A stretch of 64,000 bases of DNA, from positions 1,338 to 65,337 of the forward strand of contig DASRSV010000030.1 of NCBI GenBank assembly GCA_035656255.1. Direction: 5' to 3'. This document shows, piece after piece, positions 24,428 to 48,149 of the stretch (its first letter is position 1; each line of letters begins with the position of its first letter). This DNA comes from Thermoplasmata archaeon. GTDB taxonomy: Archaea > Thermoplasmatota > Thermoplasmata > Lutacidiplasmatales > UBA184. Made by a program: the position numbers and the translations under genes. The notes beneath the pieces were generated by a model that saw nothing but the letters and a program-made list of their open reading frames with translations, was not told the origin of the DNA and searched no databases.

Positions 24428-25360
24428 ATGCAGACCGATCGAAGCGAGACTATCTCGAACCTTCGCAGTGGACGCGGACGTCGTCGGGCCGCGTGGTCCG
24501 GCGTCGCCGGAGCCTTGGCGGTGTCGCTCGTCCTGCTGGTCGCCCCGTCCGTCGGAGCATTCCGTCCGCACACGTATGTCGCCCCGTACCGGGGCACGGC
24601 GGCGACGCCGCTCAACTCGGTCTCGACGGGCGGCCGCTGCCACTCCGCGGCGGTGGTCACCTCCCAGCACTGGCTCCCCAAGACCGGGAACGCGACGTCG
24701 CTCACCACAGCGATTACCCACGGCTGTGCTTCGACCGCCCTCGGGACGGCGTACGGGTACGGCACGGCGTATGGAGAGCTCCAGGTCCTGTGGCCGTTCA
24801 CCGTGGTGACGGGAACGCACAATTTCACCGTGAACGTCTCGTATGCGTTCACGATCCAGATGCCGACGGTCGGCTCGTTCTCCTGCCGACAGGCGAAGAA
24901 CGTGCCGGGGCAGTACACCTACAGCTACTGCGCCTTCAATCGGTCGGCCACCGTCCAGTGGGGGTTCGAGCTGTTCGACCAGACGAACGGGAGCTCGCTC
25001 TCCGCGGGCAGCGCCACCGGCCCGTTCTTCTTCAACTCGAGCTTCCAGGGGAACAACTCGTACTGTTCGGGCGGGAAGTGCTCCTCCAACAACTACAGCC
25101 GCAGCTGCTCGTCGCCGAACCCGTGCGTCGCGGCGGGGACCCTGCAGCGCGGGACGACCAGCCTCTTTCTCAACACGCGAACGACGTCGCCCGGGTGGAC
25201 GCTGAACGGGAATCACAAGCTGTGGCTGGTGCTCTGGTTCAGCAGCTCCGCGCTGATCTTCATGGACGGCTACGGCTCGGGAAACTCCGCCGGCGCCTCC
25301 GTCAATGCCGCCACGCTCGGGAATTCCGGTTGGCAGGTGACCTCGATCACCATCCACTGA
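24428..25360 (+). CDS. Secreted Cys/sequon-rich protein, paralog family member A
   Basis: Signal-like N-terminus (AAWSGVAGALAVSLVLLVAPSVGA), then HTYVAPYRGTAAT. More than 12 N-x-S/T sequons. Shares motifs (FELFDQTNGSSLS vs ISLFDQTNATSLS; RTYLAPYKGT) with the ORFs at 38232, 46217 and 47226. Confidence 0.6.
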   Translation: MQTDRSETISNLRSGRGRRRAAWSGVAGALAVSLVLLVAPSVGAFRPHTYVAPYRGTAATPLNSVSTGGRCHSAAVVTSQHWLPKTGNATSLTTAITHGCASTALGTAYGYGTAYGELQVLWPFTVVTGTHNFTVNVSYAFTIQMPTVGSFSCRQAKNVPGQYTYSYCAFNRSATVQWGFELFDQTNGSSLSAGSATGPFFFNSSFQGNNSYCSGGKCSSNNYSRSCSSPNPCVAAGTLQRGTTSLFLNTRTTSPGWTLNGNHKLWLVLWFSSSALIFMDGYGSGNSAGASVNAATLGNSGWQVTSITIH

Positions 25361-25454
25361 GAGCAGATCGGGGGCGGGGTCCCCCGGATCCGCGCCCCAA
25401 ACCCTCGCGGCGGCCCCCGTGGCTCCTCTCGGGCGCCGCCGCTCGCCTCCCGCC

Positions 25455-25461
25455 TATATAC
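25455..25461 (+). promoter_or_regulatory. TATA-box-like element (TATATAC) about 25 nt upstream of the purB GTG; consistent with a leaderless transcript
   Basis: The only AT-rich hexamer in a GC-rich intergenic stretch, at the correct spacing for an archaeal TATA/TSS. Confidence 0.45.
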
Positions 25462-25482
25462 ACGAGCCCGGCTCACGCCGCC

Positions 25483-26847
25483 GTGGCGGACGACGCGGCC
25501 GCGCTCTTCTGCCCGCTCGAGTTCCGGTACGGTCGACCGGAGGTCCGCGCGCTCTTCTCGCGTGAGGCGCGCCTCGCCCGCGCGCTCCAGGTGGAGGCGG
25601 CGCTCGCGGAGAGCGAGGCCGAGCTGGGAATGATCCCGGCCGACGCCGCGCGCTCGATCGCCCGAGCGGCGAAAGGGAGCGCCGTGACGCTCGAACGGGT
25701 CGACGAGCTGGAGCGAGCGACCCGCCACGACGTGATGGCCATCACCCGCGCGCTCGCCGAGGCGGCCGGCGACGGGGGCGCCTGGGTGCACTTCGGCGCG
25801 ACCTCGGCCGACATCACCGACACGGCCCTAGCCCTCGAGCTCAAGGAAGCCGCGGCGGTGCTCCGCCACGACCTGACCGAGCTCGGCGGGCGGCTCCTCG
25901 AGCTCGCGCGGAAGCATCGGGCCACGCCGGAGGTCGGGCGGACGCACGGCCAGCACGCCGTACCCATCAGTTTCGGTTACAAGATGGCGGTCGCCGCGGC
26001 CGAAGTGACGCGGCACCGCCGTCGTCTCGACGAGCTGCTCCCTCGGCTCGCTGTCGGCAAGATGGCCGGCGCGGTCGGGACCGGCTCGGGGTTCGGCGCG
26101 AACGCCGAGGCAGTCGAGGTGGCCACGATGCTCCGCCTCGGCCTCGGGGTCGACGAGGCCCCGACGCAGGTCGTGGGCCGCGACCGGCACGCCGAGCTCA
26201 CGAACCTCCTCGCGCTGATCGCCGGCACCGCCGAACGGCTCTCGGGCGAGGTGCGGAACCTCCAGCGATCCGAGATCGCCGAGGTGCGGGAGCCGTTCGA
26301 TGAACGGCACCAGGTCGGCAGCTCGACGATGGCGCAGAAGCGCAACCCGGTCGTGAGCGAGAACGTCGGGTCGCTCGCGCGGCTTGTGCGGGCCTTCGCC
26401 CTCCCGCCCCTCGAGAACATCGCGCTCTGGCACGAACGCGACCTGACCAATTCGGCGAACGAGCGGATCGTCCTTCCGCACGCCCTCGTGCTGACGGACG
26501 ATCTTCTCGCGAAGCTGAGCGGCATCTTCGCCGACCTTCAGGTCGACGCTCAGCGGATGTCCGAGACGCTCGCGGCCTCGGAGGGGAGCGTGATGTCCGA
26601 GAACCTCATGCTCGCGCTGACGACCCGCGGGGTCGCCCGTTCGGACGCCCACGAGATGCTCCGGAGCCTCACGAGCCCCGGCGCCAGCGGCACGCTCGCG
26701 ACGCGGACGAAGGCCGACGCCCGCGTCCGGAAGTACCTCCGGCCCGAGGAGGTCGATGGGCTCCTCGATCCGCGGTCGTACGTGCTCGCGGCGGCCGCGA
26801 AGACCGACCGGATCGTCACCCGCCTCGAGACCGAGCTCGCCGCGTGA
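25483..26847 (+). CDS. purB: Adenylosuccinate lyase
   Basis: GTG 25483 (MADDAAALFCPLEFRYGRPEV...). Fumarate-lyase signature GSSTMAQKRNP. 454 aa. The ORF-track extension back to 24289 is a shadow. Confidence 0.9.
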   Translation: MADDAAALFCPLEFRYGRPEVRALFSREARLARALQVEAALAESEAELGMIPADAARSIARAAKGSAVTLERVDELERATRHDVMAITRALAEAAGDGGAWVHFGATSADITDTALALELKEAAAVLRHDLTELGGRLLELARKHRATPEVGRTHGQHAVPISFGYKMAVAAAEVTRHRRRLDELLPRLAVGKMAGAVGTGSGFGANAEAVEVATMLRLGLGVDEAPTQVVGRDRHAELTNLLALIAGTAERLSGEVRNLQRSEIAEVREPFDERHQVGSSTMAQKRNPVVSENVGSLARLVRAFALPPLENIALWHERDLTNSANERIVLPHALVLTDDLLAKLSGIFADLQVDAQRMSETLAASEGSVMSENLMLALTTRGVARSDAHEMLRSLTSPGASGTLATRTKADARVRKYLRPEEVDGLLDPRSYVLAAAAKTDRIVTRLETELAA

Positions 26848-27116
26848 ACGCCGCGCGGCCGCGCTGGACCGCGTCGCTCGAGGTGCGGGCGGGCTCGAAG
26901 GCGGTCGCCGGACGCTGGCGCGTCGCCCTGGGTCCCGAGTCGCAACGTGAGATTCCCCGGGCGACCGCCCGCATCGGCCGCATCCCGGACGCGACCGTTC
27001 GGGTGCACCTGGAAGCGCCGACGCCCGGCGCGCTCCGGGCCGCGGTCAACACGTACCTCGGCTGGTTCGACCTGCTGGCCCGGGCCTCGCAGGTCGCTGA
27101 ATCCCCCGTCGACTGA
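26844..27116 (+). CDS. KEOPS subunit Pcc1-like small protein
   Basis: 90 aa. GTGA overlap with the purB stop. C-terminal ALRAAVNTYLGWFDLLARASQV resembles the Pcc1 helix (LRASLNSYLRWI). Confidence 0.45.
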   Translation: MNAARPRWTASLEVRAGSKAVAGRWRVALGPESQREIPRATARIGRIPDATVRVHLEAPTPGALRAAVNTYLGWFDLLARASQVAESPVD

Positions 27117-27172
27117 CCGTTCCGCCGCCGCCTCCCGCAGTGCTTATCACGCGAGCGTCGCGTGGACGCACC

Positions 27173-27553
27173 GTGGCCCTTCCGGCGAAGCTCCAGAACG
27201 ACCTGCGGCAGTTCCAACGTTTGCAGCAGGACCTGGGGGCGGTCAGCCAACAGCGGCTCCAGTTCGACCTGAAGCTGCGCGAGATCACCCACACCCTCGA
27301 GGAGCTCAAGACGATCCCGGAGGATGCCGGGCTCTACCGACCGATTGGGAGCCTCCTCGTCCGGGCGAAGAGCCGGCAGGAGGTCGTCGACCTCCTGACC
27401 GAGGAGAAGGAGACGCTCGAGGTGCGGCTGAAGGCCGCCGAGCGCCAGGAGAACGGACTCAAGGAACGATACTCCACCATGCAACGCGAGCTCTCCGACG
27501 CCCTGCAAGCCGCCGGGGTCGCTCCGGCCGGCGCGGCGACCGGCGAACCGTAG
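27173..27553 (+). CDS. pfdB: Prefoldin beta subunit
   Basis: GTG 27173. Coiled-coil/hairpin with LEELKTIPEDAGLYRPIGSLLV, typical of the GimC beta class. Confidence 0.7.
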   Translation: MALPAKLQNDLRQFQRLQQDLGAVSQQRLQFDLKLREITHTLEELKTIPEDAGLYRPIGSLLVRAKSRQEVVDLLTEEKETLEVRLKAAERQENGLKERYSTMQRELSDALQAAGVAPAGAATGEP

Positions 27554-27563
27554 CCGCCGCCCG

Positions 27564-28625
27564 CTACACCGACCGGACGGTCAGCCGGTCCGCGATCTCT
27601 TCGAGCAGCGGTCGGTGCGCGGGGCGCACCGCGCGCGACCGACGGACGCGCGCGCGGGCCCGGTCGCTCAGTTCTCGAATCCTCTTCTCCGACCGCTCGA
27701 CGGCACCGGACCGTCGGAGCGCTTCGCGCGCCGCGTCGACCTGCGCCGGGGTCGCTCGTGGGTTCCCCAGCACCCGTCCGATCGCCCGACGGTCGGCCGC
27801 GTCGCCGAGCCGCCACGCGTCGACGACCAGAAGCGTCCGCTTACCTTCGACGACATCGTTCGCGCTCTTCTCGGCTTGGGTCGCCGAGAGCCCGGCGCCG
27901 AGAACGTCGTCGCGGAGCTGGAACGCGACGCCGGCGGCCGAGCCGAACGACCAGAGGTCGCGAACGAGCGCGGGCGATGCTCCCCCGAGCACCGCGCCGA
28001 TCTCGAGCGGCCCGGCTACGGTGTAGACAGCCGACTTGAGCAGGTGGACGGTGAGGACATCCTCTTCGCGGACCCGTTCGACGGGAAGCGTTCCGTTGCG
28101 GATGTCGAGCAGCTGACCGAGCGCCGTCTGCCGTGCCATCCGGGCGTACGCCTCGAGGGCCCGGAGGCGTCGCGCGGCGGGCACGCGGGTCGCGAGCAAG
28201 CTCCGGACCGTCACGGGCTCCTCCAGATCGCCCAACGTGATCCCCAAGCCGACCCCGAGGGCCACGGGATCTCCGATCGCCCCGGAGGCTCGGACCCGCG
28301 CCTCGATCGAACGGTACAGGGCGGGACCTCCGCGCCGGAGTTCGGAGTGGTCGATGATGTCGTCGTGGATCAGCATCCAGCTCTGGAAGTGCTCGAGCGC
28401 CGCGGCCGCCGGCAGCGCCGGCGACGGGTCCTTTCCGGTCGCGAGATGGTAGCCGGCGAGGACGAGCAACGCTCGGAACCGCTTGCCCCCGCGGAGGGTG
28501 AACTCCTCGAGGAGGTCCCAGTACTCGGAGAACTCACGGTCCGATCCTCTCCGCTCCCCCGCATACCGCGTGCGGAGCGCCCGTTCCAGCCGGGGACGAA
28601 ACGCGGTGAGTCGCTCGAAGTTCAA
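27564..28625 (-). CDS. idsA: Polyprenyl (geranylgeranyl) diphosphate synthase
   Basis: FARM MLIHDDIID and SARM FQLRDDVLG aspartate-rich motifs. TTG 28625 is the proposed start; the 5' ORF-track extension to 29075 is rejected. Confidence 0.8.
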   Translation of the reverse strand: MNFERLTAFRPRLERALRTRYAGERRGSDREFSEYWDLLEEFTLRGGKRFRALLVLAGYHLATGKDPSPALPAAAALEHFQSWMLIHDDIIDHSELRRGGPALYRSIEARVRASGAIGDPVALGVGLGITLGDLEEPVTVRSLLATRVPAARRLRALEAYARMARQTALGQLLDIRNGTLPVERVREEDVLTVHLLKSAVYTVAGPLEIGAVLGGASPALVRDLWSFGSAAGVAFQLRDDVLGAGLSATQAEKSANDVVEGKRTLLVVDAWRLGDAADRRAIGRVLGNPRATPAQVDAAREALRRSGAVERSEKRIRELSDRARARVRRSRAVRPAHRPLLEEIADRLTVRSV

Positions 28626-28651
28626 GGTCGGTCGCGGCTCCGGCTTACGCG

Positions 28652-28658
28652 TATATAA
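28652..28658. promoter_or_regulatory. Single TATATAA element centred about 27-30 nt from two divergent start codons (TTG 28625 on -, GTG 28683 on +)
   Basis: Near-palindromic TATA element in a 57-nt divergent intergenic region; both flanking genes would be leaderless. Confidence 0.4.
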
Positions 28659-28682
28659 CCGCCGAGGCGAATCCGGTCGTCG

Positions 28683-29828
28683 GTGGCCGTTCCGGTGTTC
28701 TCCGAACTCGTCGCCGGCCTCGTGGAGGCGCTCGGGGAGCGGATGGACGCGGCCCGACCGATCGACGAGGGCCTGCTCGTGCGGACGCAGGACGGTTTCC
28801 TCTTCGCGTTCCTGGAGGACCCGAACCGCGTCTCGCTCGACACGGTCCGGCGACTGTTCGACGAGGTCGCTCCGACCCCGGCCCGGCTCGCGGTGCTCGC
28901 ACCGGGGCGGCTTCCGCTCGCCATCGGTACGGAGGTACTGAAGCAGGGCGGGAGCCTCATCGACGGTCAGCGGTTCGTCGAGCTCGCGCGCGGGCTCGGG
29001 CTCGACCAGTACCTGGGTCAGGAGCCGAAGCCGACGGCGGCGCGGGAGAGTTCGCGGCTCCTCCCGAGCGCGCAACAGCTCGACGTCGTGATGGGTCGAG
29101 GGAGGACCTGGCTCGACTGGGGCGTGCCCGCCCTCGCCCTCCGGTTCTTCCGTCAGGCCCTCGCCCAGAAGCCGGAATTCCTACCGGCGAAGGTGGGCGT
29201 CGGCACCGCCCTGCTCGGGCTCGGGCTCACGGACGACGCGGAGCGGACGTTCCAGGAAGCCCTCGGGCAGCATCCTGAGGACGTGGATGCGCGGATCGGC
29301 CTCGCTTCGGTGCTCGGCGCCCGCGGCAAGATCGCCGAAGAGGTCGCCGTCTACCGCGAGATCCTCGCCGGTGCTCCGTCGATCGCGCGCGTCCGCGCCC
29401 ACCTCCTGGCCGCCCTGATGTTCGAGAAGAACTGGTCGGAGGCGCGCACCGAGGTCGAAGCGATGCTCACGTCGACCCCGGAGGAGCCGCAGCTCCGGTT
29501 CCTCCACGGAGTGTCGCTCACCGAATCCGGGGCGACCGCCGAGGGGGAGCGGGAGAAGCAGCGAGGCCGCGAGCTCGGGCTCACGTGGGATCGTGAGCGG
29601 GCCCTCCTCGAGCACTTGGGCCTGCCGGTGCCGGCTCCGCCCATCCGCGGCGTGCCCTCGGCGCCGACGTCCGCTCCGTCGGAGGTGCGGGCGTCGGCCG
29701 GCCGCCGACCCGCCTCGGTCCGCCCGCGACCGCGTCGGCCCCGAACGAGGAGCGCACGCACGACCGGACCGCCCACGAAGAGGCGCCGGCGTACGCCGAC
29801 CGGCCGTTCGGGCCGTAAACGTAAGTAG
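28683..29828 (+). CDS. Restriction-endonuclease-like (Mrr-cat-like) N-domain / TPR-repeat protein with a highly basic C-terminal tail
   Basis: N-terminal FSELVAGLVEALGERMD...GLLVRTQDGFLFAFLE resembles REase-fold N-domains. There are at least 4 TPR-like repeats. The last roughly 70 aa are R/P/T/K-rich. Confidence 0.5.
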   Translation: MAVPVFSELVAGLVEALGERMDAARPIDEGLLVRTQDGFLFAFLEDPNRVSLDTVRRLFDEVAPTPARLAVLAPGRLPLAIGTEVLKQGGSLIDGQRFVELARGLGLDQYLGQEPKPTAARESSRLLPSAQQLDVVMGRGRTWLDWGVPALALRFFRQALAQKPEFLPAKVGVGTALLGLGLTDDAERTFQEALGQHPEDVDARIGLASVLGARGKIAEEVAVYREILAGAPSIARVRAHLLAALMFEKNWSEARTEVEAMLTSTPEEPQLRFLHGVSLTESGATAEGEREKQRGRELGLTWDRERALLEHLGLPVPAPPIRGVPSAPTSAPSEVRASAGRRPASVRPRPRRPRTRSARTTGPPTKRRRRTPTGRSGRKRK

Positions 29829-29861
29829 CGGCGCCCGGGGTCGCCGCCCCCGGAGAGCGTC

Positions 29862-30779
29862 GTGCGGGTCGTCTCCGTGCTTCCGAGCGCGACCGAGATC
29901 GTCTGCGCCCTCGGACTCCGGGGAAGCCTCGTCGGCCGCAGCGAGGAGTGCGACTACCCTCCCTCGGTCCGGGAACTTCCGGTCGTCATGCACGCCCGGA
30001 GCGCGGACACCGACCGAGCCTCCGCCGAGATCGATGTTCGGGTGCAAGCGGCGCGTCGCGCCGGGGCGAGCCTCTACACGCTCGACGTGGCCACCCTCGC
30101 CGCGCTGCGCCCCGATGTGATCCTCACCCAGGACCTCTGCGGCGTCTGCTCGGTGACGACCGACGAGGTCGCGGACGGCTGCGCGAGGGCCGGGGTCTCG
30201 CCACGGATCGTCACGCTGACGCCGCGCACCCTGGCCGACGTCTGGGCGTCCGCGGAGACGATCGGAGCCTCGCTCGGCGTCCCGGAACGGGGCCAGGAAC
30301 TTGCGTCGGGCCTGCGCACCCGATCGATGCCCGGCTCCGCGGGGGACCGGCGACCTCGCGTCGCGGTTGTCGAATGGGTCGATCCGCCGATCTTGGCTGG
30401 GCTTTGGGTACCGGAGATGATCGGGAGCGCCGGGGGCGATCCGGTCGGACCGGCCCCCGGGGAGGTCGGCGAACGAACGACGTGGCCGGAGGTCGCCGAT
30501 CGGCACCCCGACCTTGTCATCGTCAGCCCGTGCAGCTTCTCGGTCGAACGGACCCGCGCGGAACTTCGGGCGAGCCGCACGGCGCGGGGGCTCCTTCGGC
30601 TGCGCCCCCCACTCGGCACGTGGATCCTCGATGAATCGTACTTCAGCCGTCCCGGGCCCCGGCTCGCGAACGGGGTCGCACTGCTCCGGGCCCTCGTTCG
30701 GAGGGAGCTAGCCGCCGATGGTGGGGCGAACCCGACTTGGATGCCGCTCCTTCCCCCGGTCGCCGAGGAGGCTGCGTGA
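29862..30779 (+). CDS. Periplasmic-binding-protein family 2 (cobalamin/siderophore BtuF-like) substrate-binding protein
   Basis: MRVVSVLPSATEIVCALGL, DVILTQDLC and LVIVSPC are Peripla_BP_2 hallmarks. A GGAGAG lies upstream of GTG 29862. Confidence 0.65.
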   Translation: MRVVSVLPSATEIVCALGLRGSLVGRSEECDYPPSVRELPVVMHARSADTDRASAEIDVRVQAARRAGASLYTLDVATLAALRPDVILTQDLCGVCSVTTDEVADGCARAGVSPRIVTLTPRTLADVWASAETIGASLGVPERGQELASGLRTRSMPGSAGDRRPRVAVVEWVDPPILAGLWVPEMIGSAGGDPVGPAPGEVGERTTWPEVADRHPDLVIVSPCSFSVERTRAELRASRTARGLLRLRPPLGTWILDESYFSRPGPRLANGVALLRALVRRELAADGGANPTWMPLLPPVAEEAA

Positions 30780-31471: not shown

Positions 31472-31478
31472 GCTCCTG

Positions 31479-34596: not shown

Positions 34597-34669
34597 AGCC
34601 CCGTGGTGTAGCGGCCAAGCATGCTGGCCTTTGGAGCCGGCGACAGCGGTTCGAATCCGCTCGGGGCTA
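34597..34669 (+). tRNA. tRNA-Gln (anticodon TTG/UUG); CCA not encoded
   Basis: 7-bp acceptor stem (AGCCCCG/CGGGGCT) with discriminator A. Anticodon arm CTGGC-CTTTGGA-GCCGG (U33, anticodon UUG, G37). T arm GCGG-TTCGAAT-CCGC. Nearly identical in layout to haloarchaeal tRNA-Gln(UUG). Confidence 0.85.
34642..34669 (+). repeat. Left copy of the direct repeat (tRNA-Gln 3' end; attL-like)
   Basis: ACAGCGG..CGAATCCGCTCGGGGCTA. The 18-nt core CGAATCCGCTCGGGGCTA is repeated exactly at 37904-37921. Confidence 0.7.
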
Positions 34670-35085
34670 TGGTCCGAATGGGGGCATCTCCCCTCACCCG
34701 AACCCGCCTCCGCCGAGGTGAGGCCTCCAGAAGTTCGGCTCGAAACGGACTCCGGCGGCCCGCGAAGCGTGCCTTGTGGACGGCCCGATCGTGGCTGACC
34801 CATGGGCGCTCGGGAATCCCCCCACCCGAACTTCCCCCGAGCGGCAACTCGGTGTAGCGCAGTCTCAATAGAAATCTCGAATTTCACGCGAGTTCGTGGG
34901 TCGGCTCGCGTCCAAGAGAGAGGTCCAAGAGCCCTTCGCTCGCGTCGACCGCCCGGCCCCGACCAGCTCCGAGGCGACCGGATCGATTCAAACCAGGCGA
35001 CGGCGCGACGACCCACTCCACCGGGGAACAAGATGTCTCAAGCCCGGCGCGAAAATGACTTGCCGGCCGCTCAGGTCGGTCGAGG

Positions 35086-37266
35086 TTGATATTCTTACGC
35101 GCGGTGGTTGGTCCCAGAGGAACCCCTTCGGTTCAGGGGGAACACGTGGTCGCAACGGATCTGGGCCGACCTGCCCAATCCTCGCTGGTGTTCGCGGTCT
35201 TACCCATCGTTGTCGCGATTGTAATTGTTAGCTCCCTGCCGACAGGGGTGCTGACCGAACGGAGCAGCGCTTTCGCGCCGGCGACAACCGGGGCACATAT
35301 TCACGCGACTCGAGCCGCCTACGCGGCGTCCCAACTTGCCGCCGCGAGAAACTCACTCCTCCCGGGCCAGGAGGCGTCGTGTCCAGTCACCGGAGCCGCG
35401 GGCTCGGGCCGGTGCCCCGCGGGTCCCGGGCCTTCTGGGGCCCGGCAGCACCTCGCGACAATTGGCCCCCTCCTGGTGCCGACCCCGTCGTGGAGCCAAA
35501 TCCGCTACCTGATTCCCCAGGGTCGACAGGTCGCGTCGATGGCTTACGATGCGAAGGACAAGTATGTACTGCTCTTCGGTGGGCTCAACAGTTCGGCCTC
35601 GTTGGGCGACACCTGGTCGTTCTCCGCGGGGGTATGGACGGCGATTCACACAGCGACGTCGCCTCAAGCTCGATACGGCGCCGCCATGACCTTCGACGGC
35701 GCGGACAACTATATCGTCCTCTTCGGCGGCTACAACAGTGCCGGCGCGCTCTCCGACACTTGGAAGTACGCCGCGGGCACGTGGACCAAACTCACCCCCA
35801 CCAAGAACCCGACCGCGGCTCTCTACGCGACGTTGAGTTACGACAGCAAGGACGGATACGCAGTCTACATCGGGGGACTCAGTGGTGCGCTGGTCGCCCA
35901 GAACGCGACTTGGGAATTCAAGGCCGGTCAATGGACACAGCTGACACCCACCCCTTCCCCGACGGCCCGCTACTTGGCGAGCCTCGCCTACGACGGACGG
36001 GACAGCTACCTGGTTCTCTTCGGCGGGGTTAACGCGACCTTCGCCTACCTTGGCGACACTTGGAACTTCTCCGCGGGCCATTGGTCCAAGCTGACTCCTC
36101 CGAAGGCGCCATCCGCAAGGGCGGAGTCGAGTCTAGGCTTTAGCGCGAGGGACGGGGAGCTGGTGCTCTTCGGGGGATACACCGGGGCGGCCTACCTCTC
36201 GGACGCCTGGACGTTCGTGGGCGGGGGGTGGACGAAGATAAGTACGGCTTTTCACCCGTCTTCGCGTGCCGGGGCGATGATCGCCGATGGGACCACCTCC
36301 CAGAATTTGGTGCTGTACGGAGGGGTCGTGGTTTCGGGCACGGTCATCAACCAGACATGGACGTTCCACGGTCTCGTCTGGACGAAGGCCATCCCCCGCT
36401 CGCCGGTGGGCCGAAGCCTTACAGCGATGACGTACGATGAGGCGGACGGCTATGTTCTACTGTTTGGTGGAAGCGACCTTGGTTACTTGGGCGACAGCTG
36501 GAAGTACCTCCACGGAACCTGGACGCCGATTCACACCTCCCCGTCACCACCCGCTCGAATCAGCGCCGCCATGGCGTACGACCAGGCCGACGGGTACGTT
36601 GTGTTGTTCGGGGGGAGAAATGCGAGCGGGCCTCTCTCGGACACGTGGACCTATCTCGCCGGGACCTGGAGCCAAGTGGTGGCCCCGGTTCCCCCGTCCC
36701 CGCGGGAATCGGCAAGCATGACCTACGACGCCGCAGACGGGTACATCCTCCTGTTCGGGGGATACGATCTCAGCGCGCTGAACGATACCTGGTCGTTCTC
36801 CGCCGGGATGTGGACGAACGTCAGTCCGCTTTCGGGTCCGTCGCCGCGATTCTCCTCGCAGCTGACCTACGATTCGGCGGACGGGTATGTCCTGCTCTTT
36901 TCAGGCTACCAGCCGTACCTCGTTCCCAACTCGTACAACGACACTTGGAGCTACAGCGCGGGTACGTGGACCAACCTCACCGCTGGCCTCGCCACAAGCC
37001 CCCCCGGACGAAGCATCGGGGTGATTTCGGACGATACCTACGACGGCTATCTGGTCCTGTATGGGGGATCCGACTCCAGCGGCGCTGGCGGTTACGTGAC
37101 GACGACCTGGAGCTTCGTGAACGGCGCTTGGGCGCAGCTTTTTCCGGCCGCGAATCCTGGTGTCCTCCTCTATATGTCGAGCGCATTTGACCCGCCAGAC
37201 AACTCCCTCATCATGTTCGGGGGAACTAACGGCTTGACGCTCCAAGGTGGAACCTGGTCATACTGA
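35086..37266 (+). CDS. Membrane-anchored Kelch-repeat (12 blades, two beta-propellers) surface protein
   Basis: N-terminal TM helix LVFAVLPIVVAIVIVSSL, then twelve repeats of the type YDxxDxYxxLFGG...DTWxxxAGxWT. Alternative GTG start at 35146. A GAAAATGA element lies about 24 nt upstream of ATG 35086. Confidence 0.7.
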   Translation: MIFLRAVVGPRGTPSVQGEHVVATDLGRPAQSSLVFAVLPIVVAIVIVSSLPTGVLTERSSAFAPATTGAHIHATRAAYAASQLAAARNSLLPGQEASCPVTGAAGSGRCPAGPGPSGARQHLATIGPLLVPTPSWSQIRYLIPQGRQVASMAYDAKDKYVLLFGGLNSSASLGDTWSFSAGVWTAIHTATSPQARYGAAMTFDGADNYIVLFGGYNSAGALSDTWKYAAGTWTKLTPTKNPTAALYATLSYDSKDGYAVYIGGLSGALVAQNATWEFKAGQWTQLTPTPSPTARYLASLAYDGRDSYLVLFGGVNATFAYLGDTWNFSAGHWSKLTPPKAPSARAESSLGFSARDGELVLFGGYTGAAYLSDAWTFVGGGWTKISTAFHPSSRAGAMIADGTTSQNLVLYGGVVVSGTVINQTWTFHGLVWTKAIPRSPVGRSLTAMTYDEADGYVLLFGGSDLGYLGDSWKYLHGTWTPIHTSPSPPARISAAMAYDQADGYVVLFGGRNASGPLSDTWTYLAGTWSQVVAPVPPSPRESASMTYDAADGYILLFGGYDLSALNDTWSFSAGMWTNVSPLSGPSPRFSSQLTYDSADGYVLLFSGYQPYLVPNSYNDTWSYSAGTWTNLTAGLATSPPGRSIGVISDDTYDGYLVLYGGSDSSGAGGYVTTTWSFVNGAWAQLFPAANPGVLLYMSSAFDPPDNSLIMFGGTNGLTLQGGTWSY

Positions 37267-37895: not shown

Positions 37896-37921
37896 ACAGC
37901 GGGCGAATCCGCTCGGGGCTA
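37896..37921 (+). repeat. Right copy of the direct repeat (partial tRNA-Gln 3' end; attR-like)
   Basis: ACAGCGGGCGAATCCGCTCGGGGCTA. The upstream sequence has no D or anticodon arm, so this is a fragment, not a tRNA. Confidence 0.7.
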
Positions 37922-38231
37922 CGGCCCTCGCGGGGGCACTCCTCCTCATACGAACCCCCGCTGCCCAGTGGGCTGGCTCTCGATCTCACGCGTTGTGCGG
38001 GCGATTGGGAGTCTCGCGGCTCGGGGTCGAGGGGACGACCCGCCCTGGCCCGGACGACCCCCCACCGGAACGTGTCCCGATAGGGGTCGGCAGACGTCCG
38101 TGCTCTCGGCCCTGCCCTCGGGAGGTTGCGCGCGGGGGATCCGCGGCCGGACGCGATCCGCTCTAGGATCGACCTCCCCGGTCCGGGGCGAGCTGCCCTC
38201 CGCGGCGTGGGGGGCGGGTCCTATGTGACCG

Positions 38232-39428
38232 TCAAGGATGTGTGACGCGGAATCCGGCGTTGCCGGCCGTCGCGCCGTTGAACGTCGCGGCCGCACGGAA
38301 TCCGTGCAGGTAGCCGCCGCTGACGGACTCGGTCAAGATCCCGAAGGACACGATGAACCAGTAGCGATGACTGGAGTTCAACGTCCAGTTGTGCCAGACG
38401 TCGCAGTACGTGTATGCGATCGCCAGGCAGTTGTCGCCGGGGGTGAGCGTCAGGGAGCCGTTCCCGACCGCGACGCCGCTGGCCGGAACACAACTCCCGA
38501 GCCCGAGCTCGCCGGGAAAGCGAAAGGATTGCACGAAGTCAGGACAAGCGTAGGTAAAGTTGGCCGAGGCGCACCCCGTTCGATAGCACCACGTGTAATT
38601 CTCGACGCCGCTCGCGTTCCCCGGCCCGTACCAATAGTCGAGCAGGCTGCTGAGCGAAGTGGCATTCGTCTGGTCGAAGAGCGAGATGTTCACCCAAGCG
38701 TACGACTGCACCCCCGCCGCGCAGTAGGATTGCGCCCGTGTATGGTTGGTCGGCTTCTGTGCGAGCGGACAGCTCTGGGTTCCTCCGATGGATACGTCCA
38801 CCGTATAGCCATACGAGAACGAAACCCGGAGCGAGTGGGCCGCGCTGTTCGCGATCCGAACCGGGACGAGCAGCGTGCCGAAGGAGCGGGCCAGGGCGAA
38901 GGCCCCGGCGTTCCTCCGCGTCGTCGGGGTGGTGCACCCGCTCAGCCCCGCGTGAGCGTATCCATGGATACCGGCGGTCTTGGGCGACCAGTCGACATGG
39001 CGGAGTGCGGTCGAGGCGCGACACGGGCCGCTCTCAAAGAGCTCCGCGGCGAAACTGGCCCGTGCGCCTTTCAGGGAGGTCACGGGCCCGGTCGGTGCCG
39101 TCGCCCCGGCGAGCGATGCGGCGACCGTGCTCAGGGCGACGAGCGTGGAGAACCCGGCGATGGCTGAGGTCCGATTCCGACGGAGCCGTGGGCGCGACGA
39201 GCGGAGAGAGCTCGGCTTCCCGCGTCCGATGGTCGAGCCATGAACGCGCACCCGTTCGGCCCGCGGCGTTTGAGGCGAGTGTTGTGTATAAACCTCGACT
39301 AGTCCGCGTGCGGAAACACGGCCGCAGGAGTGCACTCCAGCGTCGAGATCAATGTCGCGGCTGGCCGGTCTGCCCGTCGTCTGGCTGAACGGACGGACTC
39401 GGGCCGGGCCCTCACCGAATGTGGACAA
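38232..39428 (-). CDS. Secreted Cys/sequon-rich protein, paralog family member B (start uncertain)
   Basis: Internal signal-like segment RTSAIAGFSTLVALSTVAASLAGATAP suggests the true start is near 39240. C-terminal motifs are shared with the ORFs at 24428, 46217 and 47226. Confidence 0.5.
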   Translation of the reverse strand: MSTFGEGPARVRPFSQTTGRPASRDIDLDAGVHSCGRVSARGLVEVYTQHSPQTPRAERVRVHGSTIGRGKPSSLRSSRPRLRRNRTSAIAGFSTLVALSTVAASLAGATAPTGPVTSLKGARASFAAELFESGPCRASTALRHVDWSPKTAGIHGYAHAGLSGCTTPTTRRNAGAFALARSFGTLLVPVRIANSAAHSLRVSFSYGYTVDVSIGGTQSCPLAQKPTNHTRAQSYCAAGVQSYAWVNISLFDQTNATSLSSLLDYWYGPGNASGVENYTWCYRTGCASANFTYACPDFVQSFRFPGELGLGSCVPASGVAVGNGSLTLTPGDNCLAIAYTYCDVWHNWTLNSSHRYWFIVSFGILTESVSGGYLHGFRAAATFNGATAGNAGFRVTHP

Positions 39429-39431
39429 CGC

Positions 39432-42270: not shown

Positions 42271-42355
42271 GCGGTCCCCCGACTTCCGTCCGTTCGGGCG
42301 CCGCGTCCCTCCCAGGGACCCCGTTATCCGCGGCTCTCCGCTCCTCGTCGGACGG

Positions 42356-43060
42356 ATGGTGTCCGACCCCTCGGCGGAGCCGGCGCCCTCGCTGCTCCGC
42401 GTCACCGTACGTCGGTCGATCGTCGCCGGGCGGATCTATCTCGCCATCGGGGCCGGCGTTTCGGTCCTGATCGGCAGCGCCCTCAGTCTCACGGCGGGCG
42501 CCGGTCTGTCGCTCGGGTTCCCGCTCCTGTTCCCGGTCTACGCCACGGTGGGAGGCATCGGAGGCCTGATGGTGTTCACCGACGACCGGATCAAGGGCGT
42601 CCTCGAGTATCTCATGGCGTACGGGGTCTCCCCGCGTCGCCTCTTCGTCAACGTTCTCATTTCGGCGATGGTCCTGGTCTCGATCGTCCTCACCCTCTCG
42701 GTCGGGACCGCGCTGGGTCTGCTCGTCGGCCGGGGGCTTACGATACCCCCGGTCCTCCTCGAGGTGCTGGTCGTCTATTCGATACCGATGACCTTCGCCT
42801 CGGTCGCGTTCGCCGCAACGGTCGGGATGTTCTGGACCTCCCTCTCCTCCCCCCGCGAGGGGATGAACAGTCCGGCGGGCCTGGCCCCGATCCTCGGGGT
42901 GGGACCGCCCGTCCTCACGCTCATCGCGGTCGGCCTCGCCCCGGCCGATTTTCTGACGGTTCTCGCCGGGGCGGTGCTCGCCATGGTCGTTCTCGTCACG
43001 CTCCTCGTGAACAACGTCAACCGCCTGCTGCCGCGGGAGCGACTGCTCTCGCCGGCGTAG
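42356..43060 (+). CDS. ABC-2-type transporter permease-like membrane protein
   Basis: 6 predicted TM helices immediately upstream of the ABC ATPase. Confidence 0.5.
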   Translation: MVSDPSAEPAPSLLRVTVRRSIVAGRIYLAIGAGVSVLIGSALSLTAGAGLSLGFPLLFPVYATVGGIGGLMVFTDDRIKGVLEYLMAYGVSPRRLFVNVLISAMVLVSIVLTLSVGTALGLLVGRGLTIPPVLLEVLVVYSIPMTFASVAFAATVGMFWTSLSSPREGMNSPAGLAPILGVGPPVLTLIAVGLAPADFLTVLAGAVLAMVVLVTLLVNNVNRLLPRERLLSPA

Positions 43061-43076
43061 CCGGGGGCTCGGATCC

Positions 43077-43973
43077 TTGGAAGTGTCGACGCCGCTCACC
43101 GGCGGTTCCACGGGCACCGCTTCCGGTGGGGCCGAACTCGAATGCCGCTCCGTGAGCTCGGGCTATCTGGGCCATCGAGTACTGGAGAACATCTCGTTCA
43201 CGATCGACGCTCCGTCGGTCTACGTCGTGCTCGGCCCGAACGGTGCGGGGAAGACCACCCTATTCCGCACGCTCGCGGGGATACTCCCTCCCATGTCGGG
43301 GGAGGTGTTGATCGACGGAACCCCCGTCGCGCACCAAGCTTCGAGGAACCGGATGCACTACCTGTCGCACATGGATGGCATCCCGTCGGGACTGAAGGTC
43401 CGCGAGGCGCTCGACTACTACGCCCACGTCGAGCGGGCCGCTCCGGCGGACGTCGATCGAGTCCTCGACCTCCTCGACCTGCGGGAGCTCCGCGGGAAGT
43501 TCCTCTCCCAGCTGAGCCAAGGACAACGCAAGCGCGTCTCGGTCGCCCGCGTGTTCCTGCGCGACCGGGCGATCTACCTCCTCGACGAGCCGACGAGCAA
43601 CCTCGACCCGAAGCTCGCCCGGGAGATCCGGTCGCTCATCCTCGAGCTGAGCCGCGAGAAGATCGTCCTCTACTCGTCCCACAACCTCTACGAGGCGCGC
43701 GAGATCGGCCGTCACGTCCTGGCCGTACGCGACGGGAAGCTCGCGCTCTTCGACCGGATCGAGAATCTGCGCAGCGCGAAGTTCATCGTGGGGATCCGCG
43801 TGCTCGAACCGAACGACGCGCTGGACGACTACTCCCGCCAGGGCGACTACTTCCTCAAGGAGCTCGCCGGCCCGGCAGAGGTTCCTTCGCTGATCCGCGA
43901 ACTGGAATCCCGCGGCGTGAAGATCCGCGAACTCCGCGAGATGGAGAATCCGCTCGAGGATCTCTTCACCTGA
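43077..43973 (+). CDS. ABC transporter ATP-binding protein
   Basis: Walker A GPNGAGKTT, signature LSQGQRKR, Walker B LLDEPTSNLD, and H-loop SSHNL. TTG 43077 or GTG 43083 start. Confidence 0.85.
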   Translation: MEVSTPLTGGSTGTASGGAELECRSVSSGYLGHRVLENISFTIDAPSVYVVLGPNGAGKTTLFRTLAGILPPMSGEVLIDGTPVAHQASRNRMHYLSHMDGIPSGLKVREALDYYAHVERAAPADVDRVLDLLDLRELRGKFLSQLSQGQRKRVSVARVFLRDRAIYLLDEPTSNLDPKLAREIRSLILELSREKIVLYSSHNLYEAREIGRHVLAVRDGKLALFDRIENLRSAKFIVGIRVLEPNDALDDYSRQGDYFLKELAGPAEVPSLIRELESRGVKIRELREMENPLEDLFT

Positions 43974-44034
43974 TCCGCCCGAGCTTCGAGTGCCTACACC
44001 GGCTGTCGATTCCGGACCCCCGCGCGTCCGAGGT

Positions 44035-44613
44035 CTAGCGGCCGCGCGCGAGTTCCCGATACCGGAAGCAGCCGGTCAGATGGTCGTTTACCATTCCGAC
44101 CGCCTGCATGTGGGCGTAGACCACGGTGGAGCCGACGAACCGGAAGCCGCGCTGCTTGAGGTCCGCACTGAATCGGTCGGACTCGTCGGTGGTCGCCGGT
44201 AGCTCCCGCATCGACCGCCATCGGTTCACCTTCGGGCGACCCCCGACGAACGGCCAGCAGTAGGCGTCGAAGCTGCCGAACTCCCGCTGGACCTCGAGGA
44301 ACCGCTGGGCGTTGGAGACCGCGGCCTCCACTTTCAATCGGTTGCGCACGATCGCGGGATTCTTCAACAGCGTTCGGACCTTCGCGGTCGTGAACCGAGC
44401 GACCCGCGACGGGTCGAACCCTTCGAACGCCGCGCGGAACCCATCGCGCTTGTGGAGCACCACCGACCAACTGAGCCCTGCCTGGGCCGCTTCTAGCACC
44501 AGAAACTCGTAGTGGCGGGCGTCGTCGTGGGAGGGGACGCCCCACTCGGTATCGTGGTAGCTCACCATCTGGGGGTCGTCCGAATTCGCCCACGCGCACC
44601 GAATCTTCGGCAT
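44035..44613 (-). CDS. tag: DNA-3-methyladenine glycosylase I
   Basis: CAWANSDDPQMVSYHDTEWG and zinc-binding C...H...H...C pattern. 192 aa. Confidence 0.85.
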   Translation of the reverse strand: MPKIRCAWANSDDPQMVSYHDTEWGVPSHDDARHYEFLVLEAAQAGLSWSVVLHKRDGFRAAFEGFDPSRVARFTTAKVRTLLKNPAIVRNRLKVEAAVSNAQRFLEVQREFGSFDAYCWPFVGGRPKVNRWRSMRELPATTDESDRFSADLKQRGFRFVGSTVVYAHMQAVGMVNDHLTGCFRYRELARGR

Positions 44614-44850
44614 CGGTCCCGAGGCCGGCCCCAGTCCGCGACTCCGTAATCAGTTCGACTCGTCTCGCAGAGCCGGACCCGAAGCGTCGGTACTGGTTCG
44701 CTCGGGAAGCATCATCTGCGGGCCAGGACTCGGAGGAAGGTGATCGCGCCGACGGAGCGACCATCCTCGCCCGGCTACGCCCTCGTTCAGGACTCGCGTC
44801 GATCCGAACCCTCCGGCGTCTCCGAGGGTGCCCGGCGAGGATTACTCACG

Positions 44851-46239
44851 ATGGCGGTGCTGCTCGCGTCGTCGCTCCTCGTGCTCTCCGCTACGAGCAC
44901 GACGGGGTCCTCTACGGACCGCTCCGTCCCGGGCGGCCCCGACCGCTCCTCGCTCCACTTCTCCCCGTCCTTGGCCATCTACTCGAGCTCCACGATCAAC
45001 TACACGAGCTCCGTGGACGGATTCCTGCTGAGCTATGTGGAGACGCTCCCCGCCGGGTTCAACAAGTCCCGCACCTACCCGCTCGCGGTCGAGCTCCACG
45101 GACTTACCGGCGAAACCGTCCCGATCTCGGGCGGCCTCCCGAGCTACGTGGTGCCGACGACCGCCCAGGCAGCGGCGGCCGCGGGATTCATCCTCCTGAA
45201 TCCGAACACGCGGACCGGCTCCGGGTGGTACATCAATTCGAACTACACGGGGCCGCAGGAGCAGGACATCCTGGACGCGATCGCGATGGAGCGGACCGTC
45301 CGCCACATCGGCTCCGTCTACCTCTTCGGCGAAAGTATGGGCTCCATCGGGACGCTCGAGATCGGCCTCGACCACCCGCACCTGTTCCGCGGCCTCGGCG
45401 CGATCGCCAGCTTCTCGGACTTCTTCGAGATGTACGACTACCTCAACTCGACGGCGTACTCCTACCTCACGCAGTTCATGCTGCTTCCGAGTGGCGGCGC
45501 TCTGCCCAACGCCTCCGCGTACGCTCGCGGGATCTTCGTGCACCTCTCCTCGCTTCGGTTCCACCCGCAGAATCTGAGCGGGCAGCGGCTCTATGTGGCG
45601 AACGGAGCGCAGGACGTGCTCGCGTCGAACAACCTCTCCCTCTGGCCGTATCAGCAGGAGAACAACACCCTCGTGAACCGCACGTGCCTCACGAGCACGA
45701 CGTTCGCCGAGCCGTCGAACTGCACGACCCCCGTCGGGGCCCTCGCGGCGCTCCACCCAGGGCAGTTCGCCTACCGTTACGTCTTCGAGCCGAACGGACC
45801 CCACGATTACTACCTGATGAACGCCTCCGACATGTTCGCGTTCTGGCTTGGCCAGCGTCCCTCGGGAACGTATTGGGGTCACTGGCCGATCCCGACGCTG
45901 GTCGCCCCGCCCCAACCGATCGTGACGGTCGCGACGTTCCCCTGGGGGTGCGGCGCCGTCCGGGTCGGAGGCCACGCGCTTCACTCGGGCGACGTCCTCG
46001 TGACGAAGCCAGGGAACTACTCGATGCGGATCCGCTCGTGCGGGAACCTTTCCGTTCGCGCGGTACGCGCGAACGGGGGGCTCAGATGGCACGGGCTCAC
46101 GATGACGCTCTCGGTGAATGGCAGCGGAGCGATCGTCGTGACGTTCACCTCGCCGGGCCGGGGTCGGGGGGCCGGTCGGTTCGCCGATCGCGGACCCAAG
46201 CGGAGCTCGTGCGGGCTTAGGCGATTATCACCTGGGTAA
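44851..46239 (+). CDS. Secreted alpha/beta-hydrolase (esterase/depolymerase-like) glycoprotein
   Basis: Signal peptide MAVLLASSLLVLSATS. Nucleophile elbow GESMG. Many sequons. Confidence 0.55.
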   Translation: MAVLLASSLLVLSATSTTGSSTDRSVPGGPDRSSLHFSPSLAIYSSSTINYTSSVDGFLLSYVETLPAGFNKSRTYPLAVELHGLTGETVPISGGLPSYVVPTTAQAAAAAGFILLNPNTRTGSGWYINSNYTGPQEQDILDAIAMERTVRHIGSVYLFGESMGSIGTLEIGLDHPHLFRGLGAIASFSDFFEMYDYLNSTAYSYLTQFMLLPSGGALPNASAYARGIFVHLSSLRFHPQNLSGQRLYVANGAQDVLASNNLSLWPYQQENNTLVNRTCLTSTTFAEPSNCTTPVGALAALHPGQFAYRYVFEPNGPHDYYLMNASDMFAFWLGQRPSGTYWGHWPIPTLVAPPQPIVTVATFPWGCGAVRVGGHALHSGDVLVTKPGNYSMRIRSCGNLSVRAVRANGGLRWHGLTMTLSVNGSGAIVVTFTSPGRGRGAGRFADRGPKRSSCGLRRLSPG

Positions 46240-47131
46240 GGTCGACCGCGTTCGGTCCCGACCCGAAGTCGATCGAGGCGAGGGCGGACCCGGCCGCAGG
46301 CGCTACCCGGGTGAAGTTCAGGCTCGAAGTGTCGACCTGGGCGAAGCCGGTCGTCAGGAAGTAGGTGACGAGCTCCCAGCTGTGGGTCGCGTTCGGCGCG
46401 CCGATCGCGAAGCGGTAGGTGAAGGTGGAGGAGCCGTTGCGCGCCACGGACGCCCCGGTCGTCGTGAGGGAGTGGGTGCACGTGGGAGCGCAGGAGACTA
46501 GCTTGGACTGGGAGGAGTAATTGTACAAGCTCGGGAAGAGGGCGCTCGACGACCCGTAGTACCGGCCGGCCGTGGCGTCCGCGACCAGGCTCAGCAGCTC
46601 CATCGAAGCCGAGGCCGTAACGCGGCACGACAGGTAGCCGAACGAGGCACTCGGAGCCAGGCGACCGCTGCAGAGGTGGACCGCGGAGAGGGAAACGTTC
46701 TCCGTCCATCGGAACGACCAGCTCGCGTTCACCCAGGCCGTCGACGCGTTCGGGGGTAGCCGGAGCGGCAGGACCACGTACCAGCTTTGACCCCAAGAAG
46801 CAACCGAATCGGTCCCGGTCCCGGGGGCGTAGGCTCGGCAGCCGTGAGCCTCGGCGACGCCGCCCGCCACGCCGACACCCGAGGAAGGGAACCATCGCGG
46901 CGAGGACGTGGACCACGAGCCCGCGCATCCACTCGAGAATTGGTATGACGCCCAGACGACTCCGGCGTGGCGGTACGGAGCAGTCGCGCCGGCCGCGCCT
47001 CCGAGGGGGGCGACCAAGACGGCAACCCCCACCGCTGCGCCGAACCGGACCGCGGGACGACCCCAAGAGGCGACGCGGAGGCGGACCGGTCCGGGACCCT
47101 CGGCTCGAGGCCGCCTCCCGGGAAAGCGCAT
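46217..47131 (-). CDS. Secreted Cys/sequon-rich protein, paralog family member C
   Basis: Signal-like FGAAVGVAVLVAPLGGAAGATAPYRHAG. Motifs are shared with the other paralogs. Confidence 0.5.
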   Translation of the reverse strand: MRFPGRRPRAEGPGPVRLRVASWGRPAVRFGAAVGVAVLVAPLGGAAGATAPYRHAGVVWASYQFSSGCAGSWSTSSPRWFPSSGVGVAGGVAEAHGCRAYAPGTGTDSVASWGQSWYVVLPLRLPPNASTAWVNASWSFRWTENVSLSAVHLCSGRLAPSASFGYLSCRVTASASMELLSLVADATAGRYYGSSSALFPSLYNYSSQSKLVSCAPTCTHSLTTTGASVARNGSSTFTYRFAIGAPNATHSWELVTYFLTTGFAQVDTSSLNFTRVAPAAGSALASIDFGSGPNAVDLTQVIIA

Positions 47132-47225
47132 TACGAGCCCCCTACCGCGCCCTGCGCTTAACGAGCGCCGCGGCGCCGGCGCGCCGACCGACTGTTTCTT
47201 AGTTGGTGAGCGCTTTCGCGGCTCG

Positions 47226-48149
47226 ATGTCGCGGCGGCTCCGAGATTCGATCGGTTCCTACCGGATCGCTGCCACCGTGTTGGCTCTCACGGGGGTTCTC
47301 GCGACGGTCGGCGCGAGCGCGACGCATCCATCGCCGCGCACGTATCTTGCTCCGTACAAGGGGACCGTGAGCTCCCCGGGGGTCTCGACCGGTGCGCAGG
47401 CTTGCGCCAAGGCCGTTCAGACCATACCGAAGTGGAGCCCGCAGCTCGGCATTATGAACGAGTCCGACTCGGCGAGCGCAAAGGTCTGTGCGAAGTCGCT
47501 CGGGGGGGTGGGCTACTTCAGCTCCGCCTACTCGAGCGGACAGCTCGCCCTCGCGATCCCGATCCGGATCCCCACCAACGGGAGCCACACGATCGAGATC
47601 AACTGGACGCTGACGCTGGCGACCATCCAGAGCTGGACGGTCGGGGGATGCCCGCGCGCGAACTTCTCGTTCCCGGTCCCGTCTAGTTCGAGCGAAGACG
47701 CCTACTGCACGAACCAGGAGCTCGTCGACGTCTACATCACCGCCTACCTGGTCGATCTCACGAACTCGAGCTACAACGGTGCGACGTACGCGTGTGCGTC
47801 CGACTACAACAGCTCGGGATGGCAGAACAGCTCCTACTGCTACAATTACGGGACCCCCGGCTGCTCGAACACGACGGGGCCGTTCAACTACAGCAACAAC
47901 TACGGGTACAACAACCCCGGTTGGTCGGCGTTCACCTGGAACGGGATGACCAAATTCTCTCTCTGGACGAACGGGACCAAGATGGTCCGGACCGATCGGT
48001 GGATTGTCGAGCTCAACTTCTACAAGGACTCGCAGGCGGCGGCCGGGGCGTACCACGTGCTCGGTGCGTGGCCGGGCGCCGCGCGGGCGTTGATCAACAT
48101 GGGAACCCTCGGGAACTCGGCGAAGATCGACTCGATCACTGTCTACTAG
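47226..48149 (+). CDS. Secreted Cys/sequon-rich protein, paralog family member D
   Basis: ATG 47226, with a TTTCTTAG element about 27 nt upstream. Signal IAATVLALTGVLATVGASA followed by RTYLAPYKGT (compare HTYVAPYRGT in member A). Confidence 0.6.
   Translation: MSRRLRDSIGSYRIAATVLALTGVLATVGASATHPSPRTYLAPYKGTVSSPGVSTGAQACAKAVQTIPKWSPQLGIMNESDSASAKVCAKSLGGVGYFSSAYSSGQLALAIPIRIPTNGSHTIEINWTLTLATIQSWTVGGCPRANFSFPVPSSSSEDAYCTNQELVDVYITAYLVDLTNSSYNGATYACASDYNSSGWQNSSYCYNYGTPGCSNTTGPFNYSNNYGYNNPGWSAFTWNGMTKFSLWTNGTKMVRTDRWIVELNFYKDSQAAAGAYHVLGAWPGAARALINMGTLGNSAKIDSITVY

Follow-up and report, generated by a model that had tools for sequence, protein, structure and literature searches.

A multi-copy, lineage-restricted family of predicted exported, cysteine-rich proteins in a Lutacidiplasmatales-like archaeon

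What are the four small, cysteine-rich proteins with signal-like N-termini that are encoded at scattered positions on one archaeal contig, and what might they do outside the cell? The question arises from the window analysed here, a 64,000-nucleotide (nt) stretch of contig DASRSV010000030.1 (positions 1,338 to 65,337 of its forward strand), which comes from a Thermoplasmata metagenome-assembled genome (MAG) of about 70% GC, near Ca. Lutacidiplasmatales and from acid forest soil. A sequence-only reading had described the four open reading frames (ORFs), here termed paralogs A, B, C and D, as a paralogous exported family without recognisable function. This description holds, and the family proves to be genuine, unannotated, lineage-restricted, multi-copy and fast-diverging, and to have an N-terminus of the export type. 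As a family it is new, though familiar in kind, belonging among archaeal extracellular glycoproteins. Judging from sequence features, its members are most likely abundant, acid-stable surface or binding glycoproteins with a non-enzymatic role.

Coding status, homology and extent of the family

Paralog A (24428..25360, + strand) encodes 310 amino acids (aa) with 8 Cys and 8 N-x-S/T sequons, arranged as an Arg-rich n-region, the hydrophobic segment AAWSGVAGALAVSLVLLVAPSVGA and a predicted beta-sandwich domain. Paralog B (38232..39251, - strand; 339 aa) is of a 10-Cys subtype with 10 sequons, paralog C (46217..47131, - strand; 304 aa) stands out as the most divergent (6 Cys, 7 sequons), and paralog D (47226..48149, + strand; 307 aa) belongs to the most widespread subtype and has 7 Cys and 10 sequons. 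All four frames are coding where they had been placed: G+C content at third codon positions (GC3) is 0.89 in A, 0.80 in B, 0.85 in C and 0.88 in D, against 0.48–0.55 in the overlapping antisense ORFs, in a window whose GC content is about 70% throughout and in which long spurious ORFs are plentiful. For B the frame stands and the start moves. The open frame reaches TTG 39428, the start first assigned, which would give 11 Cys instead of 10; most probably translation begins at GTG 39251, 37 nt downstream of a TTTATA box (39293–39288). The earlier estimate of 10–20 sequons and 8–14 Cys per protein was too high, the actual ranges being 7–10 and 6–11. In 13 confident window genes taken as background, 0.6 sequons and 1.3 Cys occur per 300 aa, levels that the four proteins exceed more than tenfold, and Ser+Thr make up 21–25% of the family proteins.

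The start of A is assigned to ATG 24428, the first start in frame, because an SD-like (Shine-Dalgarno-like) sequence, GGGAAGGAAGC, lies just upstream and the syntenic ortholog in L002, a related genome locus, has an equivalent N-terminus consisting of an Arg-rich n-region and a hydrophobic segment. NCBI VFF67_10595 matches paralog A at 100% identity; its annotated start, GTG 24521, falls inside the hydrophobic segment. More broadly, the public gene calls for this family (P0001, P0002, P0004) are systematically truncated at the N-terminus: A and its ortholog begin within the hydrophobic segment, B (P0004) is called at 283 aa, and C is reduced to its last 128 codons (46217–46603). Such truncations would conceal signal sequences from automated secretome predictions. 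Despite its 128-codon public call, C matches the family model end to end, and its 3' end overlaps a convergent esterase-like gene by 23 nt.

Homology among the four proteins is indicated at several levels. Pairwise BLASTP E values are 1e-18 for A–B, 1e-13 for A–D, 1e-5 to 8e-7 for A–C, 6e-4 for D–C and 8e-5 for B–D. The short conserved blocks reported from the sequence are present, namely PHTYVAPYRGT / PRTYLAPYKGT, FELFDQTNGSSLS / ISLFDQTNATSLS and the YSYC cysteine. A hidden Markov model (HMM) trained on 105 family members, none of them from the window, and run at a database size of 1.8e9, recovers D at 1e-76, A at 1e-62, C at 1e-41 (HMM positions 11–297) and B at 1e-39, the matches spanning essentially the whole model. 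Because this window-free model matches all four proteins nearly full-length, the blocks common to A–D reflect true homology and not compositional similarity alone. A six-frame HMM scan of the window finds exactly four family members, so the earlier count of four is right for the window; it does not extend to the source MAG, which holds at least 11 copies: these four, five in tandem on another contig (VFF67_02465 to 02485), VFF67_03465 and VFF67_04770.

The family extends well beyond this genome. An exhaustive profile search of 1.84 billion representatives returns 331 sequences at E <= 1e-3, 201 at 1e-10 and 32 at 1e-30. Nearly all of the 331 cluster representatives are single-domain proteins of 250–350 aa with one full-length match, and those members that have a name are all listed as 'hypothetical protein', in Thermoplasmata or Ca. 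Lutacidiplasmatales MAGs. Among GTDB species representatives, a scan yields eight loci in two MAGs, one of them AcS5-116, a Lutacidiplasmatales MAG that is 98% complete, has 68% GC and derives from pine-forest soil (PMC9287336); relatives of D at 37–44% identity occur in two GTDB MAGs. Three groups are seen, comprising D-type proteins, A/B-type proteins with 10 Cys, and divergent members such as C. No characterised family is matched. In Pfam, 110 members searched at E <= 10 produce no family beyond single chance matches and the four window proteins produce none at E <= 1; NCBIfam is empty for 8 members and PHROGs for 7, and a PDB sequence search with the family profile finds no match. A viral origin was considered and rejected, as a BFVD fold search gives nothing above a template modelling (TM) score of 0.34 and a scan of IMG/VR finds no viral relative.

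Copies are also clustered in relatives, with four within 17 kilobases (kb) at L009, a tandem pair at L011, a divergent pair at L012 and a tandem triple at L013. In the window, C and D stand head-to-head with exactly 94 nt between their start codons, as described in the sequence-only reading, which took the arrangement as a sign of local duplication. Their identity is about 21–23%, and the head-to-head arrangement is thus old and not a recent local duplication. The L002 ortholog of A is syntenic, lying between the AA-kinase and adenylosuccinate lyase genes, and shares 63% identity with A, whereas the median identity of 19 flanking syntenic orthologs is about 84%. The family diverges faster than its neighbouring genes.

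Conserved anatomy and predicted fold

Residues are numbered here from GTG 24521 of A; numbering from the ATG adds 31. Cysteines C40, C69, C122 and C137 are invariant, C182 and C187 are conserved at about 87–90%, and the A/B subtype has additional Cys pairs. A single near-invariant Asp, D153, is found in 162 of 164 sequences, the other 2 having Asn, and sits in an L-x-D-x-T-N motif corresponding to residue 184 in A (LFDQTN) and residue 177 in D. In the models it closes a long strand at a hairpin tip, next to the best-conserved sequon. The family alignment contains no second invariant polar residue, whether acidic, His or Ser, which argues against an enzyme. Sequon Asn residues at columns 156, 172, 178 and 225 are conserved in 62–79% of members, and the median is 8 sequons per member. 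An A-P-Y-x-G motif follows the hydrophobic segment (degenerate in B), an N-x-A-T-x-G-N-G block lies near the C-terminus, and position 232 alternates between His and Asp. Insertions concentrate after positions 131, 199, 223 and 249.

The signal-like hydrophobic segment first noticed in the four window proteins is present in all of them and in 97 of 110 family members. It measures 20–26 residues, follows an Arg-rich region of 20–30 residues and ends in a conserved Pro with small residues (AGA, VGA), the globular domain beginning directly after it. Twin arginines occur in some n-regions (GRRRAAW in A, YRRVGRF in P0005) at positions that are not conserved, and the Pfam TAT_signal model matches 1 of 110 members at E 0.21. 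A hydrophobic C-terminal 19-mer is seen in 7 of 110 members; the C-termini of A–D are all beta-strands (...VTSITIH, ...IDSITVY). Median composition is 3.6% Asp+Glu and 4.9% Lys+Arg, about 8% charged overall. This composition resembles that of the thermopsin encoded next to D, and such low charge would fit proteins exposed to acid.

AlphaFold2 models computed from a 110-sequence alignment are confident, with a mean predicted local distance difference test (pLDDT) of 94.5 and a predicted TM score (pTM) of 0.87 for A, and 91.8 and 0.83 for D. Both models are all-beta with 13–15 strands, several of which are 16–24 residues long, rendering the sandwich elongated. The fold search that had been proposed for the family returns nothing convincing and one repeatable neighbour: the sole high-probability Foldseek match in the PDB for both models is 8okh (Bd1399), with probabilities of 0.97 and 0.98 and TM scores of 0.19–0.34, at a superposition root-mean-square deviation (rmsd) of 12–17 A. 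The PDB sequence search with the family profile did not reach 8okh. Lower ranks contain lectins, carbohydrate-binding modules (CBMs), birnavirus VP2 and tail-fibre tips at TM <= 0.3. Concanavalin-A-like lectins, CBM4/16/61 and phage tail-fibre tips are likewise all-beta sandwiches, and with probabilities mostly below 0.3 the resemblance is one of fold class only. A legume-lectin jelly-roll was rejected (TM 0.10–0.16, probability <= 0.21), and no conserved sugar-binding or Ca-binding signature was identified in the family.

Promoters and genomic neighbourhood

A common promoter element precedes many family genes. In relatives, CGAGGTCTAAATAC lies upstream of most of them, 85–95 nt before the start codon (L004, L005, L009, L011–L016), and is followed by a variable leader of about 60 nt and then by GGAGGAA or GGAACGAAA, both SD-like. 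D-type genes also show nucleotide conservation in their first codons, ATGGGGGAGAACGG (MGENG). In the window, an element resembling a TFB-recognition element (BRE) and TATA box lies upstream of A (24340..24352, + strand) and reads CGAGGTTTATGAG, a degenerate form of CGAGGTCTAAATAC, and a promoter-like element of B (39284..39297, - strand) reads CGAGGTTTATACAC. GGTTTAT occurs twice in the 64 kb, both times in the sense orientation upstream of a family gene; the regular expression GA[AG][AG]T[CTA]TA[AT] gives 17 matches in about 240 kb, all sense and all upstream of family genes, the only window matches being those of A and B; and family genes follow 13 of the 14 TYTAAATA boxes (duplicates removed) that the retrieved loci contain. 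The remaining box, in L017, precedes a gene (5849–6416, + strand) for a 172-aa Ser/Thr-rich ORF with a pilin- or archaellin-like N-terminus, MRRIEGRTIYVATAATILALIGGF. Taken at the level of sequence, CGAGGTCTAAATAC may be an unusually canonical BRE/TATA element that marks highly expressed surface-protein genes. The C/D intergenic region (47132..47225; 94 nt) carries cTTAAc at about 47158–47163 and TTTCTTAG at 47195–47202, AT-richer patches positioned about 24–31 nt from the respective ATG, and transcription of C and D may be leaderless.

No constant neighbour or operon partner is found across the contexts of A, P0003, P0007, P0011, D and the eight GTDB loci. Downstream of D by 600 nt, a thermopsin gene (48768–51290, + strand) encodes a secreted protein of 840 aa that matches PF05317 at residues 89–354 (E 1.9e-50) and continues into a C-terminal extension of about 480 aa without a Pfam match; it has 13 sequons and 2% Lys+Arg. 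The esterase-like gene convergent with C (44851–46239, + strand) encodes an exported protein of 462 aa with 14 sequons, for which the only Pfam match is a weak esterase-like one. Together, C, D, the thermopsin gene and the esterase-like gene make up a 6.5-kb neighbourhood of predicted extracellular glycoprotein genes. Between D and the thermopsin gene, 15 nt after the D stop codon, a gene of the public assembly (48164–48583, + strand) encodes a basic 139-aa ORF that lacks both a signal sequence and a Pfam match and is possibly co-transcribed with D.

Paralog B does lie, as had been noted, beside a tRNA-linked insertion. The 3' 27 nt of tRNA-Gln(ttg) (34597–34669) recur at about 37897–37922, with looser similarity continuing downstream, and a second repeat block follows (34818–34840 = 38058–38080). 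This att-like direct repeat encloses about 3.25 kb of lower GC (0.64–0.67), which contains only a Kelch beta-propeller gene (35086–37266, + strand) and a 94-aa ORF, and no integrase. The Kelch protein, 726 aa long and membrane-anchored or secreted, is built on ten repeats of about 147 nt. Paralog B is located about 310 nt outside the distal repeat and was rejected as a part of the insertion. Kelch beta-propeller genes occur about 1–8 kb from family members in three contexts, namely this one, L011 (11133–12095, - strand) and L017 (9148–10164, + strand); the recurrence is possibly coincidental, or it may reflect a loose association of extracellular protein genes.

One further window ORF (11606–12886, - strand) was examined as a fifth family member and found unrelated by the six-frame HMM scan and by hhalign. 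It encodes 426 aa with a signal-like segment, 9 sequons and 10 Cys, has no Pfam match and appears to be an uncharacterised exported Cys-rich glycoprotein.

Candidate functions

The explanation tentatively preferred, which comes just short of an even call, is that the proteins work non-enzymatically on or close to the cell surface, whether as a coat, in adhesion or in binding a ligand. Under this explanation the Sec pathway would export the protein, after which signal peptidase I might cut it free at an AxA-like site; alternatively, it would stay attached by its N-terminus as a type II membrane protein. The conserved cysteines would pair into three disulfides, and AglB would N-glycosylate the chain outside the cell. 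The product would be an elongated beta-sandwich that is rigid, stable in acid and covered by glycans, and paralogs would vary chiefly in their indel-rich loops. Archaeal S-layer and surface glycoproteins, such as Sulfolobus SlaA and Haloferax csg, have a signal sequence together with dense N-glycosylation and strong promoters, and in acidophiles are low in charge. The family resembles them in its N-terminal hydrophobic segment and in its dense sequons, at which glycosylation is predicted. It differs in that its members are much smaller, at about 30 kDa, and are encoded by many divergent paralogs rather than by one or two genes. That they build the surface lattice as a major protein of the cell is hinted at, indirectly, only by the near-consensus TATA box that most members share. 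The S-layer-associated, adhesion or antigenic-variation role suggested by the sequence-only reading is plausible only; it would fit a family that has many copies, diverges fast, shares a presumably strong promoter and shows no catalytic signature.

Several points weigh against such a surface role. Paralogs A–D show no C-terminal transmembrane helix, PGF-CTERM, sorting signal or known S-layer domain, and neither they nor the aligned relatives have a lipobox, since the hydrophobic segment and the residues just behind it contain no Cys, so the search for lipobox and PGF-CTERM motifs recommended earlier comes out negative on both. With no C-terminal anchor or lipobox, retention at the surface would need an uncleaved N-terminal helix or a partner. 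The family promoter motif was not found upstream of window C or D in motif searches. Bd1399, the nearest repeatable neighbour in the fold comparison of the models, is itself without an assigned function and superposes poorly (TM 0.19–0.34). Export, glycosylation, disulfides and abundance are all predictions, and the near-invariant Asp could yet be functional.

A bolder form of the surface role, which must be called unlikely, makes the family the principal highly expressed coat of Lutacidiplasmatales-like archaea. It would represent a new fold and a modular substitute for an S-layer, N-anchored, glycan-shielded and disulfide-locked, with dozens of divergent paralogs under one strong promoter that vary the surface against viruses or soil chemistry. 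The alternative to this coat is that the proteins form an archaeal branch, the first one, of the secreted invasion and effector proteins of DUF4360 type.

In that explanation, which is doubtful, the proteins would be released as effectors targeting other cells or the environment, as distant structural kin of a DUF4360/Bd1399 class on which, on this account, Bdellovibrio predation depends and which also occurs among fungal effector candidates. Bd1399 is a secreted, elongated beta-sandwich locked by two conserved disulfides (PMC10792529), and 8okh is the only high-probability match for both models; the proposed likeness to DUF4360 (PF14273) would cover the signal peptide, secretion, a two-sheet elongated sandwich of about 14 strands and conserved disulfides. 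There is no membrane anchor besides the signal segment, and rapid divergence with many paralogs is typical of effector families. The low TM scores and large rmsd speak against kinship, as does size: Bd1399 has 165 aa and two disulfides, against about 270 aa and a predicted three to five in the present family, with three Cys pairs conserved by sequence. None of 110 members matches the Pfam DUF4360 model at E <= 10. Furthermore, DUF4360 is bacterial and fungal where the family is archaeal, heavy N-glycosylation is not reported for Bd1399, DUF4360 itself is without an established function, and Lutacidiplasmatales are predicted to be free-living organoheterotrophs (PMC9287336).

Somewhat more doubtful is a role as acid-stable extracellular hydrolases, a new acid peptidase or glycanase that would use the near-invariant Asp, possibly as a homodimer, and would complement thermopsin. 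The Asp and its motif (hydrophobic-x-D-x-T-N) are the basis of this proposal, together with the reliance of such organisms on the extracellular acid peptidases thermopsin, S53 and A4 (PMC9287336). D is followed closely by the thermopsin gene, and upstream of C there is a gene for a secreted esterase-like protein; thermopsins (PF05317, MEROPS A5) share with the family export, abundant sequons, low charge and exposure to acid in acidophilic archaea, including the similar composition noted above. Against it, the Asp has no conserved acidic, His or Ser partner, gives way to Asn in two members and occupies a hairpin tip three residues from a conserved glycosylation site. A relationship to thermopsin itself was rejected, since none of the 110 members has a Pfam match to it and hhalign of the family profile to the neighbouring thermopsin aligns signal peptides only; that protein has 2 Cys in 840 aa, in contrast to the Cys-rich family, and the adjacency is not seen in the other genome contexts examined.

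Sulfolobus thread subunits and TasA-like archaeal bundling pilins are Sec-exported, N-glycosylated beta-sandwich surface subunits. A corresponding role of the family as extracellular filament or matrix subunits, assembled by strand exchange through the PHxxxAPYxG motif, is improbable. It would account for a short conserved motif immediately after the signal segment and would suit a beta-sandwich that is highly copied, predicted to be glycosylated and preceded by a strong promoter, the same type of TATA box also standing before the pilin-like gene in L017. No homology to these subunits is detected, however, and the APYxG segment does not dangle as a donor strand would: the monomer models show it packed, at a pLDDT of about 98. 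Some 20–30 strongly diverged paralogs in each clade do not resemble a single major filament subunit, and no segment of A–D or of the D-type and A-type alignments fits, by eye, the class III (prepilin) cleavage motif [KRDE][GA][ALIFQMVED][ILMVTAS]x3. Finally, an artefact, in which Ser/Thr/Asn/Cys-rich ORFs resemble one another by composition or are not genes at all, might draw on the high Ser+Thr content, on the long spurious ORFs of high-GC DNA and on the truncation of A, B and C by public gene callers, and is refuted, with next to nothing left in its favour, by GC3, the full-length window-free HMM matches (E <= 1e-39), the invariant Cys columns, the confident AlphaFold2 models and the syntenic ortholog.

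Lutacidiplasmatales are abundant, uncultured archaea of acid soils, and the gene families dating from the origin of the order are mostly unannotated (PMC9287336). The present family makes up about 0.5% of the genes in a genome of about 2 Mb and has the most canonical promoters in the regions examined. Its models are confident, although no close relative has a solved structure. A new Pfam entry could readily be made from it, and it lends itself well to structural study and to detection in metaproteomes. The DUF4360 link, if true, would extend a poorly understood secreted class to the archaea. As surface or binding glycoproteins, the role favoured here, the family is a good candidate for an envelope or extracellular component that may shape how these cells meet acidity.

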